From positions 131,793-195,792 of the IMG/VR virus record IMGVR_UViG_3300037483_000793: a DNA stretch of 64,000 nucleotides; one strand, 5' to 3'. Shown one piece after another: positions 3,463 to 57,367 of this stretch. Position 1 is the first letter of the stretch. Each line of letters begins with the position of its first letter. This stretch comes from a virus. The notes under the pieces are model-generated. The model was given only the letters and a program-made list of their open reading frames with translations, did not search any database and had not been told where the DNA came from. The translations under genes were made by a program, and so were the position numbers.

Positions 3463-4212
3463 TTAGACGACGGTGCGCTTGATCAGGCCGTACTTGTACA
3501 GCTTGACGTCGGCGAAGTTGAGCGCGGTCGCGCCGTCGCTCGCCGCCTGCGCGATGCGGATCGGCGCCTCGGGCTGGAACACGCCCTTGTAGCCGAGGTT
3601 CTCACGCTCGTGCACGGGAAGCACGAGAGCGACGCGGTCACGCGGGCTCGGGACGCCGTTCTGCGCCAGCTCGAACGCGGTGTTCGTCGAGAACACGTTG
3701 TAGCCGTGTCCCTGCGGGTAGTCCTGCAGAATGCCCTGCGAGTAGAACTTCGCGTTGTACTCGTACTGGAAGAACGTCACGCGGTCCATCTGGAACAGCG
3801 TGGTCAGCGTCGGCGGATCCGACAGCGCGAACGGGGCAACGCCCGCGCCCGCACCCGGAACTGCCGCGTTGAAGTCGTCCTTCAGCGTCGGCGCGAGCGG
3901 CGAGGTGTCCGGCGCGCGCATGACGCGCGAGACCATGATGCCCCAGCCGTAGACCAGCATCTCCCAGTCCTTCGGCAGACCGGTGTCGCCGTTGCGGGGA
4001 ACGTTGGTGTCGACGCGCGTCTGCACGCGCGTGCCGCCGGGGATCGGCTGCGAGCGGCCGGTCGAGAACGCTTCGAGCGGCGTGGTGATGCCGTTCGAGA
4101 ACTGGACGGAGCCGTACAGCTTGTCGTCGATCCAGTCCGCGAGGGCGATCGTGCTGCCGTCGGGCAGCGTGAGGGTTGTGGTGGATGGTGCTACGCCAAC
4201 TGCTCCGGCCAT
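3463..4212 (-). CDS. candidate major capsid protein (predicted beta-rich jelly-roll type)
   Basis: 249 aa from ATG 4212 with AAGGA RBS; strongly biased codons; own terminator; lies amid virion genes; motifs LYGSV..F...TN....LP and LPVHERENLGY. Fold is inferred. Confidence 0.5.
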   Translation of the reverse strand: MAGAVGVAPSTTTLTLPDGSTIALADWIDDKLYGSVQFSNGITTPLEAFSTGRSQPIPGGTRVQTRVDTNVPRNGDTGLPKDWEMLVYGWGIMVSRVMRAPDTSPLAPTLKDDFNAAVPGAGAGVAPFALSDPPTLTTLFQMDRVTFFQYEYNAKFYSQGILQDYPQGHGYNVFSTNTAFELAQNGVPSPRDRVALVLPVHERENLGYKGVFQPEAPIRIAQAASDGATALNFADVKLYKYGLIKRTVV

Positions 4213-4377: not shown

Positions 4378-5196
4378 CTAGTTCGAGCCTCCGAACAGGG
4401 TCGCGCCGAAGTGCGTGCCCATCGCCGAGACGCTCGGACCGCCGAGCAGCTTGGTCTGAGCGGCACCCGGGTTGTCGCCCATGCCGTAGCTACCGGCACC
4501 GACGAGCGTCGGCGGGCCCACCAGCTCGGGGCGATCCGCGCCGAAGCCTGCACCGCCACCGCTGATCGAACCCGGCACCGGGTACGCGGGCTCGATTGCC
4601 GCGGCACCGAAGCCGTTGTTCATCATCGAGGGCAGGTTCGCCGGAACGACGTAGCCCGGCTCGATGGAGTGGATGCCGAACCCGCCCTGGTACGGCTGGA
4701 TGACCGCCGTCGGGTCGATCGTCACGCCGCCCCAGCCCGAGCCGACGAGCTTCGCCGCGTCCGCGAACGAAGCCTTCTGGTCCGCCGAAGACGCTGCGGC
4801 CGTCACGAGCGCCTGTGCCTCGGCTGCAGTCGCCTTGGGCATGAACACCGACTGCTCCAGCTGACGGAGACCGTTGGTGACGAGCGCGGTTGCTGCTGCA
4901 GCCCAGCCCATGCGACGCGTGCCCGGGAACGCCATCATGACGCCGCCCGCGATGCCGCCCGCGAGGAGACCCGCCAGCTCGGAGTACTGATGGAACTTCG
5001 ACGTCGGCTTCGACATCGCGCGCGCGATGATCGCGGCGCCGGTACCGACGCCACCGCCGATGACCGCGCCCCACATCGAGTCACCGCCAGCGGGCTGGCC
5101 GAACTCGTCGAGACCGAACATGTCGACCTCGCCCATGTTGTCGTTGTCGTACTCGCCGAAGTTGCCAGCGAGCGCGCCGTTGATTTCGTTCTTCAT
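4378..5196 (-). CDS. putative virion membrane protein (two Gly-rich TM segments)
   Basis: Hydrophobic WGAVIGGGVGTGAAIIA and LAGLLAGGIAGGVMMAF; repeated GFG motifs. Confidence 0.65.
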   Translation of the reverse strand: MKNEINGALAGNFGEYDNDNMGEVDMFGLDEFGQPAGGDSMWGAVIGGGVGTGAAIIARAMSKPTSKFHQYSELAGLLAGGIAGGVMMAFPGTRRMGWAAAATALVTNGLRQLEQSVFMPKATAAEAQALVTAAASSADQKASFADAAKLVGSGWGGVTIDPTAVIQPYQGGFGIHSIEPGYVVPANLPSMMNNGFGAAAIEPAYPVPGSISGGGAGFGADRPELVGPPTLVGAGSYGMGDNPGAAQTKLLGGPSVSAMGTHFGATLFGGSN

Positions 5197-6465: not shown

Positions 6466-6696
6466 ATGGCGAAACGGCGACGTTCACGACCGTCTTTGGG
6501 AGACGCGGCAGCAGTCCCACAGTCTGTTGAACGACCGATCACGCCGCGCGAGCTTGCGACGTGGCTCAAGGTCAGCCCAGCAACCGTTCGGCGCCGCCTC
6601 GGTGAGCTACCGCACTTCCGTATCGGCAACCGCGTGCGGTTCATGCCGAGCGAAGTGATCGCGCATTACCGTCGCAAGCCTGACAGCGAATCGTAG
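6466..6696 (+). CDS. excisionase-like/MerR-type HTH DNA-binding protein
   Basis: ITPRELATWLKVSPATVRRRLGELPHFRIGNRVRF is a typical HTH_17 pattern. Confidence 0.75.
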   Translation: MAKRRRSRPSLGDAAAVPQSVERPITPRELATWLKVSPATVRRRLGELPHFRIGNRVRFMPSEVIAHYRRKPDSES

Positions 6697-51832: not shown

Positions 51833-52115
51833 GATACAGCCCTCCGTGCAGCGCGCCGTCGAACATCCGGCGCGACGGCGACTTGCTGACGTACCAGAGC
51901 GCGAACTCTTCCGTACACGGGCGACACGTCGTGAGTTTCAGCTCGCCGTGATCCCACGTGAGGATGAAGTTGAAGCCGCCCTCGACTTCGCAAACGCAGC
52001 CGACACAGCGATCGGTCAGCTTGTGCTCGTAGAGCAGGTTGATCGCGAGGTTGTAGTCCTTCGCGAGCACGGCGACTTGGATCGCAGCGACGATTGCAGG
52101 ATCAGGCTTGGGCAC
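51825..52115 (-). CDS. hypothetical Zn-finger protein
   Basis: CVGCVC...CRPC. Confidence 0.5.
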   Translation of the reverse strand: MPKPDPAIVAAIQVAVLAKDYNLAINLLYEHKLTDRCVGCVCEVEGGFNFILTWDHGELKLTTCRPCTEEFALWYVSKSPSRRMFDGALHGGLYRG

Positions 52116-52461
52116 GACGATACTGCTCCCAGTTTACTGGAAGTTCGCAGTTCAGTGGCGCGTCAGCGAACATCGGACCGATCTCGTGGTCTTGAAAACC
52201 GGCCAACCCGCAGCCGATTCGGGTTACCTGGTACGTCAGCTCGGGCGTCTCGCGGGCGAAGTCCTTGAACGTCTCGACGCTCGCGCGGATCTCGTTGAGC
52301 GTTCGTGGCTTCAGCTCACGGTCTTTCGTGGCGATGCCATATGCCGATCCCATCAGGCCTTCAGCAACGCCGTAGACAGCACCGTGCCTGCGCCGCGCTT
52401 CGAGTGCTGCACCAGCACCGTGGCGACCGGCGAGGTTCGATCCGAAGACGAAGATCTTCAT
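52102..52461 (-). CDS. macrodomain-like (A1pp-related) phage protein
   Basis: IFVFGSNLAGRHGAGAA...AYGIATK...VTRIGCGLAG; ATG immediately follows the last array hairpin. Confidence 0.7.
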   Translation of the reverse strand: MKIFVFGSNLAGRHGAGAALEARRRHGAVYGVAEGLMGSAYGIATKDRELKPRTLNEIRASVETFKDFARETPELTYQVTRIGCGLAGFQDHEIGPMFADAPLNCELPVNWEQYRRAQA

Positions 52462-53113
52462 GTGCACTTAGTGCCCTTGCCTAGCCACGCCTGACCCTGC
52501 CGCGCCCGGCATCGCCTGGCCTAGCCCTGCCCTGTAACTGTCGAGTGCACTTAGTGCCCTTGCCCTGCCTAGCCCCGCCGCGCCATGCCATGCCCCGCCT
52601 AGCTCTGCCACGCCGAGCCGCGTTGAATCGTTGATGTGCACTTAGTGCCCATGCCTCGCCATGCCTCGCCATGCTGTGCCATGCCGGGCCTTGCCCAGCC
52701 GCGCCGCGCCGCGAGAAATCATCGTGCACTTTAGTGCCCTCGCCACACCTCGCCGTGCACCGCCCAGCCTAGCCGCACCACACCAAGCCGCGTGAAAATG
52801 TCGGTGCGCACTTAGTGCCCTTGCCCTGCCTGGCCTGACCGCGCCGCGCCGCGCAATGCCCCGCCGCGCCCCGCCCGACCGCGAAAATCGTTGTGATGCA
52901 CTTTAGTGCCCTTGCCATGCCAAACCGGGCCTGACCCAGCCACGCCAGGCCTTGCCACGCCAGGCCTAGCCGAACCCCGCCCCGCCTTGCCTGGCCGCGC
53001 CGCGCCTCGCCCTGTGAAATGTTGCGGCGCACTTAGTGCCCTTGCCCAGCCGGACCGCGCCGTGCCGTGCCCAGCCCAGCCCTGCCCAGCCGCGCCCAGC
53101 ACTGCCGCGCCGA
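52462..53113 (-). ncRNA. array of seven GGY-NN pentamer guide-like RNA units with 3' hairpin (VIPR-like)
   Basis: Units with 14, 20, 12, 10, 12, 12 and 11 phased triplets, each ending NN-GGGCAC-TAA(A)-GTGC. Confidence 0.9.
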
Positions 53114-53115
53114 AA

Positions 53116-53619
53116 CTACTGATCATCGTTTTCGTCACCGGCACGAAGCGGATGCACGACAGGTCCGAACCGCACCGAGATCGCTTTACGATCAGCTTGC
53201 GCTGTTACCAGTGTCGCGTGCATGCGACGTGTCGCGTGTTCGGTCTTGACCTGCTCTCGCGGTGTCAGTTGCTCGACCGGCACACGACGAATCCGCGACA
53301 CGGATTTCCCGATGCGGCGAACGCCGCGACGGAAGTCTCGTACGCTGACTGTCACACGCTCAAATTGTTCGAGCACGCGCAAACCGACACTTGGTACAGC
53401 TTCCATGTCGATGTTCTGTTCGTTCAAGAGCCGACGACGCCACGCAGTGACAATCGTCTTGTAGCGCGATGTGCCGGGCTTGACCTGGATGGTGTTCTCG
53501 ATGTCGGTGTGCGTGATCACGTTACCTGCTTTGAGGTTCGTGAACGTCGTGAGGAGCTTCTTGACGTCGGGTTCGGTCGGGACACCACTGGAAAAAATCG
53601 TCGTCGCTGCCATCGTCAT
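53116..53619 (-). CDS. accessory protein embedded in the array (possibly winged-helix nucleic-acid binding)
   Basis: 167 aa from ATG 53619 with AAAGG RBS; VITHTDIENTI...AWRRRLLNE...VPSVGLRVL. Confidence 0.75.
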   Translation of the reverse strand: MTMAATTIFSSGVPTEPDVKKLLTTFTNLKAGNVITHTDIENTIQVKPGTSRYKTIVTAWRRRLLNEQNIDMEAVPSVGLRVLEQFERVTVSVRDFRRGVRRIGKSVSRIRRVPVEQLTPREQVKTEHATRRMHATLVTAQADRKAISVRFGPVVHPLRAGDENDDQ

Positions 53620-53631
53620 TGCCTTTCGATT

Positions 53632-53819
53632 GTACTTAGTACCCTTGCCCCGCCGTGCCGTACCCGACCCTGCCCGGCCGCGACCAGCCGTACCGCGCCC
53701 GGCCGAGCCGAGCCGTGCCAAAATTATGTCGAGAGTGTGTTGCGTGACGCACGTTAGTGCCCTTGTCCGGCCTTGCCCCGCCACGCCTAGCCGGGCCATG
53801 CCCTGCCATGCCCCGCCAT
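53632..53819 (-). ncRNA. two further GGY-NN units directly after the RAMP gene stop
   Basis: 11 and 15 triplets; hairpins GCAC-TAAC-GTGC and GTAC-TAA-GTAC. Confidence 0.9.
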
Positions 53820-53823
53820 AAAC

Positions 53824-54498
53824 CTAGATCTCTTTGATCGACTGGACGTCGAACGTACCGAAGCGTCCGGGCGTCGGACTGCTCGGACGCCAGTCGCCGA
53901 GGCCCTTGTAGCGACCGGCATACTCCAGAATCGAACCGAGAATCCCTTCGGTGATCTGGTCGTCGATCACCATGAGCACGCCCTTCAGGGACCAGTTGGT
54001 GAACTTCGGACGAACGCGGATGTGCTTGCTGTTGCCGATCTTCGCGCGTTTCGTGAACAGCGTGAACCCGTTCGCGTGCGCCATCGCGATGTGCTTCTGG
54101 AAATCCAGATTCGATGCCAGCCCGACGACGAACGGTTTGACGTCGATCGGCTTGTTCTTCACGTGCAGGATCCAGTGTTCTTCTTCGCACTGGATACCGC
54201 TCTGTGACTGCGACTTGAACGTCTTGCCGTTCTTGCCACCAGGTACGGGAACTTGAGCGCCGCCTTCCATGATGCAGCGCATGATGTTCAGCTCGGGCAT
54301 CGTGATGTGTTCACCGTCGTGATACAGCGAACCCAGCCACGAGAACGCTGGGGCACGATCGTCACCGGGCGCGCTGAGCTTCTTGTTGGCGGGGTTGGTC
54401 TGCCAGGCCTTGAGTTGATCGGCAGCTTCGATGTTGTCGTGGTGCATCAGCAGCGGTTGAACACCTTCGAGCTTCACTTCGTAACGACGAACCGGCAT
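53824..54498 (-). CDS. stand-alone Cas7/RAMP-like RNA-binding protein (Vipr-like)
   Basis: 224 aa from ATG 54498 (AAGGAAG RBS); YEVKLEGVQPLLMH, ITMPELNIMRCI, HIRVRPKF..W, C-terminal Gly loop GLGDWRP...GRFGTF. Confidence 0.8.
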   Translation of the reverse strand: MPVRRYEVKLEGVQPLLMHHDNIEAADQLKAWQTNPANKKLSAPGDDRAPAFSWLGSLYHDGEHITMPELNIMRCIMEGGAQVPVPGGKNGKTFKSQSQSGIQCEEEHWILHVKNKPIDVKPFVVGLASNLDFQKHIAMAHANGFTLFTKRAKIGNSKHIRVRPKFTNWSLKGVLMVIDDQITEGILGSILEYAGRYKGLGDWRPSSPTPGRFGTFDVQSIKEI

Positions 54499-54565
54499 AC
54501 AGTCTTCCTTGTTGATGTTGCTTAGGCGTGGTGCACGGAATGTGCGGATGCCTGTTAGCACCACG

Positions 54566-54598
54566 AACATAATCATGCCGTAGACCGCAAGTCAAGAG
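54566..54598 (-). promoter_or_regulatory. sigma70-like promoter of the RAMP/array operon
   Basis: Minus strand CTCTTGACT-N18-TATGTT. Confidence 0.6.
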
Positions 54599-54628
54599 CG
54601 AGTTGCGATGCCGCGATCCCTGCCGCGA

Positions 54629-54865
54629 TCACCGTACGCGCGCCACGGGCAGCAGCACGCCGCGACCCTTGTCCGTGATCTTGTACCGCCGCCGGAGCGT
54701 GACGCGCTCCTCGACGCCTTCGACGAAGCCTGCTTCTTCGAGCCACGCCATGTGAACGAAGATCGAGTAGCGCGAGCCGACACCTGCGTTGATCATGTCG
54801 AGCCCGTAGACTGGCGCAGGTTGCTGCCCGAGGAATTCGAGAATCCGGCGACGTGTCGTGTTCAC
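54629..54865 (-). CDS. PadR-like winged-helix regulator
   Basis: ILEFL...YGLDM...YSIFVHMAWLEEAGFV...RRRYKITDKG. Confidence 0.75.
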   Translation of the reverse strand: MNTTRRRILEFLGQQPAPVYGLDMINAGVGSRYSIFVHMAWLEEAGFVEGVEERVTLRRRYKITDKGRGVLLPVARVR

Positions 54866-56286: not shown

Positions 56287-57011
56287 CCCAGGGTGTAACG
56301 CCATCCTTCGACGGCGAGTAAGACGCTGTGCGGCTCTTCTTGCTGTTGACGCGTGAGTCGAATTTCCAGAGTGCCGTGATGGTGCAGCCACCAGAAGCAC
56401 GGCATTGGTTCAACGGCGAGCGCCCAGAACCGACCCTCGTGCAGGATCCGATTGTCCGCGAAATTCGTCACGGTGACTTTCGCCTTGGGCGTGTGCCGCG
56501 GCGGCAGCATGCGTGCCCAGAGCGTCGTCACGAGCCATGCCTGGCCACCCGGTACGCGCACTTCCCAGCGATTCTCTTCGCCGACGTTGCCGTTGACGTC
56601 GATTGCTTCGGCTTGTGACAACGAGCTGAGGCGGCGCACGTCGAGCTGTCCTGGATTCGGCGCGAGCGCGCGCAGGAACGCGAACGGCACCGAGAACGGC
56701 GATACGCGGGAACCTTCGCTGCGCCGAATGCGATCCGTAAGACCTTCAAGTGGAGGTTTCTCGCCGTAGAGTGCTTGCACGGCGAAGTCGCGCAGCGCCT
56801 CCATCGACTTCCACGGCCCGACGGCCGACTGCAGCACCGCCTCGGCAGCTTCGAGGAACTTGTCGTCGGCGTAGACCTTCTCGACGAGCAGCTCCGTATC
56901 GAGCTTGTTGAAGTCGCGAATGAAGATCAACATCTCCGCGACGAAATCGCGACGCTCGTCGAACGTCTTGTTGAGCGCGTTCGCTACCCGCACGAGGCTT
57001 CTTCCTCGCAC
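56283..57011 (-). CDS. hypothetical protein
   Basis: Coupled ORF; start uncertain. Confidence 0.55.
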   Translation of the reverse strand: MRGRSLVRVANALNKTFDERRDFVAEMLIFIRDFNKLDTELLVEKVYADDKFLEAAEAVLQSAVGPWKSMEALRDFAVQALYGEKPPLEGLTDRIRRSEGSRVSPFSVPFAFLRALAPNPGQLDVRRLSSLSQAEAIDVNGNVGEENRWEVRVPGGQAWLVTTLWARMLPPRHTPKAKVTVTNFADNRILHEGRFWALAVEPMPCFWWLHHHGTLEIRLTRQQQEEPHSVLLAVEGWRYTLG

Positions 57012-57367
57012 GCTTCGGCGATCGCAAGATACGCACCGTCAACGAGCAGTCGCATGGCCGCCTCGTGCAGCATCGGCTTGCAGTTGTCGCACGTCAGTGC
57101 GTGACGCCAGTCGACCTTCTTGTCTTCGATCATCGCGTCGAGCAGGTTGTGCGCCTGCTGCGTGCGCAGGAACGCATCGATCTTGTCGGGCGCATCTTTG
57201 CTGTCACGCGCGTTGAAGTGCACGCCAAAGCACAGCTCGACACAGAACGTCCGATTGCAAATCGGACAGGTGATCGCTGGGTTCGCTTCGCAGCACAACT
57301 CGCACAGCGGCTCGATGATGACGCCGTTGCCGTCGGGCAGCTCGGCGATGACACGATAGTTAGGCAT
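56984..57367 (-). CDS. Zn-finger (B-box-like) hypothetical protein
   Basis: CELC...CPIC...C...C...H; CDNC. Confidence 0.55.
   Translation of the reverse strand: MPNYRVIAELPDGNGVIIEPLCELCCEANPAITCPICNRTFCVELCFGVHFNARDSKDAPDKIDAFLRTQQAHNLLDAMIEDKKVDWRHALTCDNCKPMLHEAAMRLLVDGAYLAIAEACEEEASCG

Follow-up and report, generated by a model that had tools for sequence, protein, structure and literature searches.

A type II-like VIPR locus with nine guide units and a minimal hairpin tail in the genome of a large virus

The DNA analyzed here, referred to as the window, is a 64,000-nt stretch of the genome of an uncultured virus (positions 131,793 to 195,792 of IMG/VR record IMGVR_UViG_3300037483_000793). 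It carries a locus that is a further example of the published VIPR family and not a novel type of system. We consider it very probable that the locus is an operon resembling those of type II VIPR systems, which would allow a large virus to repress its rivals by means of GGY-NN guides. The case for this reading is built on the anatomy of the locus, the homology and fold of its main protein, the conservation of RNA-reading residues, the linkage of gene to array, the turnover of guide sequences, and covariation in a hairpin. A first-pass annotation, made from the sequence alone, had pointed to a resemblance to VIPR systems. That literature exists and describes the same architecture, and the protein encoded here is homologous to the Vipr of Escherichia phage SUSP1.

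VIPR systems combine a RAMP protein called Vipr, a vap gene, and vrRNAs in which 9–16 YNNGG repeats are followed by an invariable 3′ tail (10.64898/2026.04.26.720920). Their target is dsDNA, recognized under a 1-nt skip rule, and their effect is repression of transcription; they comprise seven types with 667 representative systems, and vap1 marks type II (10.64898/2026.04.26.720920). Structures of Vipr filaments reveal one protomer per repeat, and two type II structures have the same triplex geometry (10.64898/2026.04.26.720927). The type II vap1 product is predicted to bind DNA and is not a nuclease (10.64898/2026.04.26.720920), and suppression of a satellite by SUSP1 requires both vipr and vap1 (10.64898/2026.10.15.759431). 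VIPR loci are small, mostly viral, and free of CRISPR arrays and cas genes. The non-contiguous, programmable guide code of these systems, which has been proposed to pre-date CRISPR, is already published with structures and functional tests.

Anatomy of the locus and its guide units

Nine repeat units lie on the minus strand within positions 52462 to 54598 of the window, and pentamer parsing recovered every one where the first-pass annotation had placed it. The parts of the locus are as follows.

54629..54865, minus strand: PadR-like winged-helix gene, 78 aa, an uncertain member of the cassette (Pfam PadR E 8e-4, below cut-off)
54566..54595, minus strand: candidate sigma70-like promoter (TTGACT, 18 nt, TATGTT; 9/12 match)
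53824..54498, minus strand: vipr, 224 aa, RAMP/Cas7-like protein (PDB 36PP match, phrog_4652, AlphaFold model)
53749..53817, minus strand: vrRNA unit A, 11 pentamers and hairpin tail (pentamer parsing)
53632..53719, minus strand: vrRNA unit B, 15 pentamers and hairpin tail with a compensatory U-A pair (parsing and covariation)
53116..53613, minus strand: vap1-family accessory gene, 165 aa (phrog_5926, hhalign, linkage to vipr)
53029..53111, minus strand: vrRNA unit C, 14 pentamers and tail (pentamer parsing)
52898..53011, minus strand: vrRNA unit D, 20 pentamers, all GGY, and tail (pentamer parsing)
52808..52880, minus strand: vrRNA unit E, 12 pentamers and tail (pentamer parsing)
52726..52789, minus strand: vrRNA unit F, 10 pentamers and tail (pentamer parsing)
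52638..52710, minus strand: vrRNA unit G, 12 pentamers and tail (pentamer parsing)
52547..52619, minus strand: vrRNA unit H, 12 pentamers and tail (pentamer parsing)
52464..52531, minus strand: vrRNA unit I, 11 pentamers and tail (ATG of the next gene at 52461)

When parsed backwards from each tail, units A through I hold 11, 15, 14, 20, 12, 10, 12, 12, and 11 pentamers, such that eight units have 10–15 repeats and unit D has 20, compared with the 9–16 typical of VIPR systems. A still longer guide, with 24 repeats, is present at 6505–6624 of the related locus L001. The constant triplets include 96 GGC and 13 GGT, which reproduces exactly the reported count of 109 GGY among 117. The NN positions had been described as freely varying, and indeed all 16 dinucleotides are used in the nine units. 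However, the NN that directly precedes the tail is constrained, being AA in seven of the nine units and AA, GA, or AT in 141 of 179 guides from the clade. All runs of at least four GGYNN pentamers on either strand of the 195.8-kb genome fall inside the array, and block-shuffled genomes contain a mean of 0.1 run of at least five (maximum 1).

Each of the nine units finishes with GG and a 4-bp GYAC-loop-GTRC hairpin, in agreement with the common closing hairpin originally noticed. Pairing is retained in 72 of 72 cells in 18 units, and a C-G pair has changed to U-A in four of them. Throughout the clade, 173 of 339 tracts (62 loci) end with GG and a 4-bp stem, whereas 4.1 are expected from shuffles, and the stems are represented by 24 different sequences. 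Tracts of this kind accompany RAMP homologs well beyond this genome, as a search proposed with the first-pass annotation revealed: GGY-NN tracts are located near vipr in 81 of 82 homologous loci, always on the coding strand and never on the opposite one. In L001, whose Vipr is 96% identical, the scaffold and tail are kept and the NN strings are different. This persistence of GGY and tail while NN positions turn over supports, at the level of sequence comparison, a role for the tracts as guides.

These same observations bear on whether the pentamer tracts might be low-complexity coding or microsatellite DNA, for example a Gly/Ala/Arg-rich ORF on either strand, that has nothing to do with the RAMP gene. 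Several long shadow ORFs do cross the array, and the genome is GC-rich. However, a period of five is incompatible with codon constraint, the NN positions vary from unit to unit and from one close relative to the next, with GGY and tail retained, and gene callers leave the arrays of L001–L003 intergenic. The linkage to vipr and strand agreement in 81 of the 82 loci, together with covariation of the hairpin, refute this interpretation, to which we assign almost no probability.

Unit A begins 4 nt past the vipr stop codon, as first annotated. The sigma70-like promoter that had been proposed upstream is present at 54595–54566, but by itself it does not exceed chance (one found vs. 0.7 expected). 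Its −35 hexamer, TTGACT, recurs upstream of vipr in the relatives L001 and L004. A palindrome, GATCGC-N4-GCGATC, is found in 44 exact copies throughout the genome; a one-mismatch copy at 54615–54630 lies just upstream of the promoter candidate, and a two-mismatch copy occupies the corresponding place in L001.

Two neighboring genes were considered as cassette members. The PadR-like gene is upstream of vipr here, and in L001 a 70% identical gene directly follows the array; no counterpart was found in close relatives without VIPR or in 80 IMG/VR vipr loci. From this distribution, the gene possibly travels with a mobile VIPR cassette. The 119-aa gene immediately downstream of the array (52102–52461) was rejected because relatives without VIPR carry it as well.

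Vipr and its accessory gene

By sequence matches and structure prediction, the 224-aa protein is a Vipr with a RAMP fold. Its only significant match among all PDB sequences is SUSP1 Vipr (36PP), with E values of 5.3e-11 for the single sequence and 1.2e-16 for a profile. The two proteins are 27.5% identical over 218 aa by BLASTP (E 5e-19) and have phrog_4652 in common, and homologs of Vipr form more than 1,000 clusters. The relationship to RAMP and Cas7 proteins suspected at the outset also survived a structural check. An AlphaFold model (pLDDT 93.8) gave type VII Cas7 and Csm3 as the best Foldseek matches (E 2e-5) and a Z score of 10.1 to Csm3 in a VIA fold comparison, both made with structure libraries older than 36PP.

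In SUSP1 Vipr, the GGY triplet is read by residues H17, R138, D177, W178, and R179 (10.64898/2026.04.26.720927). The equivalents here are H19, R163, D202, W203, and R204, all of which are invariant among 113 homologs. Of the DNA-clamp residues of SUSP1, K88 corresponds to K92, which is likewise invariant, and R39 corresponds to K40. The other DNA-contact residues, K33 and K82, which are required for repression by SUSP1, align with T34 and A81 in a region where the alignment is weak.

Because its fold matches Cas7-group RAMPs, the protein could in principle be the remnant of a degenerate CRISPR locus, either type IV-B or Cas7-only, with an unusual array. The first-pass annotation had argued that the array is not a CRISPR array, and everything else at the locus agrees. 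There is no repeat-spacer structure and no Cas1 in the carrier genome, and a search of the locus with Rfam gave no match, CRISPR repeats included. The locus proteins match no Cas model of Pfam or PADLOC, no contiguous protospacers or linked cas5, cas6, or cas11 genes were seen, and among all PDB chains sequence similarity is to Vipr only. We therefore regard a CRISPR origin for this locus as exceedingly improbable, and a VIPR operon remains by far the better description.

The first-pass annotation had called vipr a stand-alone gene, a description that fails because a vap1-family gene, which had gone unnoticed, sits between units B and C. The 500-nt gap there contains a conserved 165-aa gene (53116–53613) whose ribosome-binding site immediately follows the unit B tail. 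Counterparts at the corresponding place are 87% (L001) and 60% (L004) identical, and 71 of the 82 vipr loci contain a homolog. The protein matches phrog_5926 (E 3.9e-8), which is also the family of SUSP1 Vap1. When a profile of 52 homologs was compared by hhalign with the genes directly downstream of vipr in SUSP1 (ALH47068.1) and wV8, the match probabilities were 94.8% (E 5.4e-8) and 94.7%, respectively. From its position downstream of vipr, we infer that ALH47068.1 is the vap1 gene described in the published work. Searches of PDB and Pfam gave no match for the Vap protein. Since the 165-aa gene is homologous to SUSP1 Vap1, the sequence evidence points to a type II system.

The carrier virus and its relatives

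The viral record is 195,792 bases long and has a terminal repeat of 177 bp with 3 mismatches; it is classed as linear in IMG/VR. Given this near-perfect terminal repeat, the carrier genome is probably complete and circular. The encoded proteins include a PolA with a UDG-like domain, ribonucleotide reductase, SNF2 and DinG helicases, and a prim-pol, and no Terminase_6N was found in the genome.

A candidate capsid protein is encoded at 3463–4212 on the minus strand. It is predicted to form a single jelly roll (pLDDT 86), and its model best matches the Sulfolobus polyhedral virus 1 (SPV1) capsid protein 6OJ0 with a moderate Z score of 8.4 (rmsd 3.4 over 138 residues), followed by the capsid proteins of HHIV-2 and HCIV-1, which are halophilic icosahedral viruses. 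No paralogy between this candidate and the adjacent 272-aa protein (4378–5196) could be detected. Judging from the modeled fold, and in part from absences, the odds that the carrier is a large tailless jelly-roll virus are about even or somewhat better.

The capsid candidate has 15 relatives in IMG/VR, with lengths of 39–221 kb. Close relatives possess the flanking genes and lack the VIPR cassette, which is, on comparison of these sequences, a patchy insertion in the carrier lineage. In one such genome (G015:C1), whose capsid candidate is 93% identical, the flanking genes occur without VIPR, and the cassette site holds an unrelated ORF of ∼160 aa that is T5orf172-like by eye (56866–57315; L189–L190). 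Another relative (G001, 221 kb, 90%) has no vipr.

Distant Vipr-like genes, with ∼25% identity and E values of 1e-8, occur in four of the 15 relatives (G004, G002, G011, and G003; L152–L155). A short GGYNN run lies beside the gene in G002 only, so the proteins of the other three may use another scaffold or may be orphans. We consider it slightly more probable than the opposite that this type II VIPR system resides on a large tailless jelly-roll virus of bacteria, unlike the tailed phages from which characterized VIPR systems come, that this lineage has gained Vipr genes more than once, and that the system belongs to a large clade whose guides have a minimal 4-bp hairpin in place of a pseudoknot. 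If so, RNA-guided conflict between viruses would span virus realms.

Mechanism, targets, and comparison with known systems

We infer the mechanism by analogy with the systems of SUSP1 and a Pseudomonas fulva prophage, which supply the proposed expression, processing, filament formation, 1-nt skip, repression, and target class. A single promoter probably drives vipr, units A and B, vap1, and units C through I. The transcript would be cut or trimmed to yield nine guide RNAs of ∼65–115 nt, each consisting of a GGY-NN tract with a 3′ cap formed by the 4-bp hairpin. Vipr protomers would then polymerize on the guide RNA, one per pentamer, with GGY buried and NN displayed, and each NN dinucleotide would pair with two bases of dsDNA, the next base of the target being passed over. 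Contact with the DNA would repress transcription without a nuclease, presumably aided by Vap1, a predicted DNA-binding protein. Likely targets, again by analogy, are competing viruses or satellites of the same host.

The searches that follow yielded no natural target for any of the guides, and for this reason both the 1-nt skip and the class of targets are putative in this clade. The carrier genome contains no self-targets with skips of 0–3, and published VIPR systems are likewise reported to have none. Nothing above shuffled guides was found when all retrieved loci were searched with guides, when guides from the window, L001, and L004 were compared with 16 related virus genomes (1.6 Mb; skips 0–2), or when 179 clade guides were compared with 82 vipr loci.

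Larger collections were scanned for exact matches, with one pattern per scan, for guides A, B, D, G, H, and I and the 24-mer guide of L001; such scans are weak for a poorly sampled, uncultured habitat. In IMG/VR, the cores of guides A, G, and B gave no hits. Guide D gave 28 (best 27/40), guide I gave one (18/22), and the 24-mer guide of L001 reached 25/48 at best. Guide H had 11 hits in metagenomes (best 21/24, of which 18 are fixed by the pattern), and guide B had four in GTDB genomes (best 25/30, of which 22 are fixed by the pattern). None of these hits extended beyond chance.

The NN strings were also decoded as codon positions 1 and 2, which gave no more than hints. A Y-[IV]-G motif, picked post hoc, appears in six of 306 guides, including guide A, compared with 1.3 expected. 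Guide D and one L001 guide have in common a D-P-P-aromatic decoding, which is also post hoc, and their shared run of five NN is near chance (0.47 expected). Searches of Pfam and a protein collection with decoded peptides found nothing. Decoded in the same way, the 24-repeat guide of L001 resembles the N terminus of a GIY-YIG nuclease, and its opposite strand is protein-like too.

Neither the related viruses (1.6 Mb) nor the exact scans of public collections gave a 1-nt-skip target, which invites the question of whether this VIPR system differs from that of SUSP1 in its code or output. Such a system might use another skip length, act on RNA, or direct its guides against host genes or host repeats. 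The low identity to SUSP1 Vipr (only 28%), the nonconserved equivalents of K33 and K82, and the different tail are all in keeping with such a change. However, skips of 0, 2, and 3 likewise yielded nothing above shuffled guides, and the collection scans are limited by the exact matching and poor sampling already described. Moreover, no defining residue of the GGY pocket varies, and the triplex geometry is the same in both published type II structures. An altered code or output is accordingly a small possibility, and repression of rivals by the SUSP1-like code is the reading we carry forward.

Beyond the main text of the published work, the locus contributes only its carrier and its minimal tail. 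It is a distant type II ortholog whose nine natural guides carry a very short tail, and it offers another scaffold for programmable repression. It is also useful for studying guide replacement, as NN positions turn over completely between viruses whose Vipr proteins are 96% identical. A probable tailless jelly-roll carrier would broaden the known range of VIPR carriers.

The closest known counterpart is the type II system of Escherichia phage SUSP1, which comprises Vipr, Vap1, and four vrRNAs (PDB 36PP). Both loci have homologous vipr and vap1 genes in the same order and on the same strand, GGY-NN guides of ∼10–15 repeats whose structured 3′ tail is constant, and conserved residues for reading GGY. 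Both are viral, without cas1 and without self-targets. In contrast, the Vipr proteins are only 28% identical, and there are nine guides here rather than four, with two between vipr and vap1, none upstream, and one that has 20 repeats. The tail here is a 4-bp hairpin, whereas that of SUSP1 is a pseudoknot of ∼40 nt, a structure described for the SUSP1 clade only (10.64898/2026.04.26.720920). The carrier also appears to be a large jelly-roll virus with no detected terminase, unlike the tailed phage SUSP1. The type II system of the P. fulva prophage is similar in having vipr, vap1, and several vrRNAs, and in being of the repression type without a nuclease accessory.

More distant likenesses are to the Cas7-group RAMPs of class 1 CRISPR systems (Csm3, Cmr, type VII Cas7, and Csf2), with which the modeled protein shares an RRM core, a thumb hairpin, and a glycine-rich loop. 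Fold matches reach a Z score of 10.1, and members of the Cas7 group polymerize along guide RNA. However, these proteins are only ∼10% identical to the Vipr of the window, and here there are no repeats, spacers, or other cas genes. Instead, constant and variable bases are interleaved every 5 nt.
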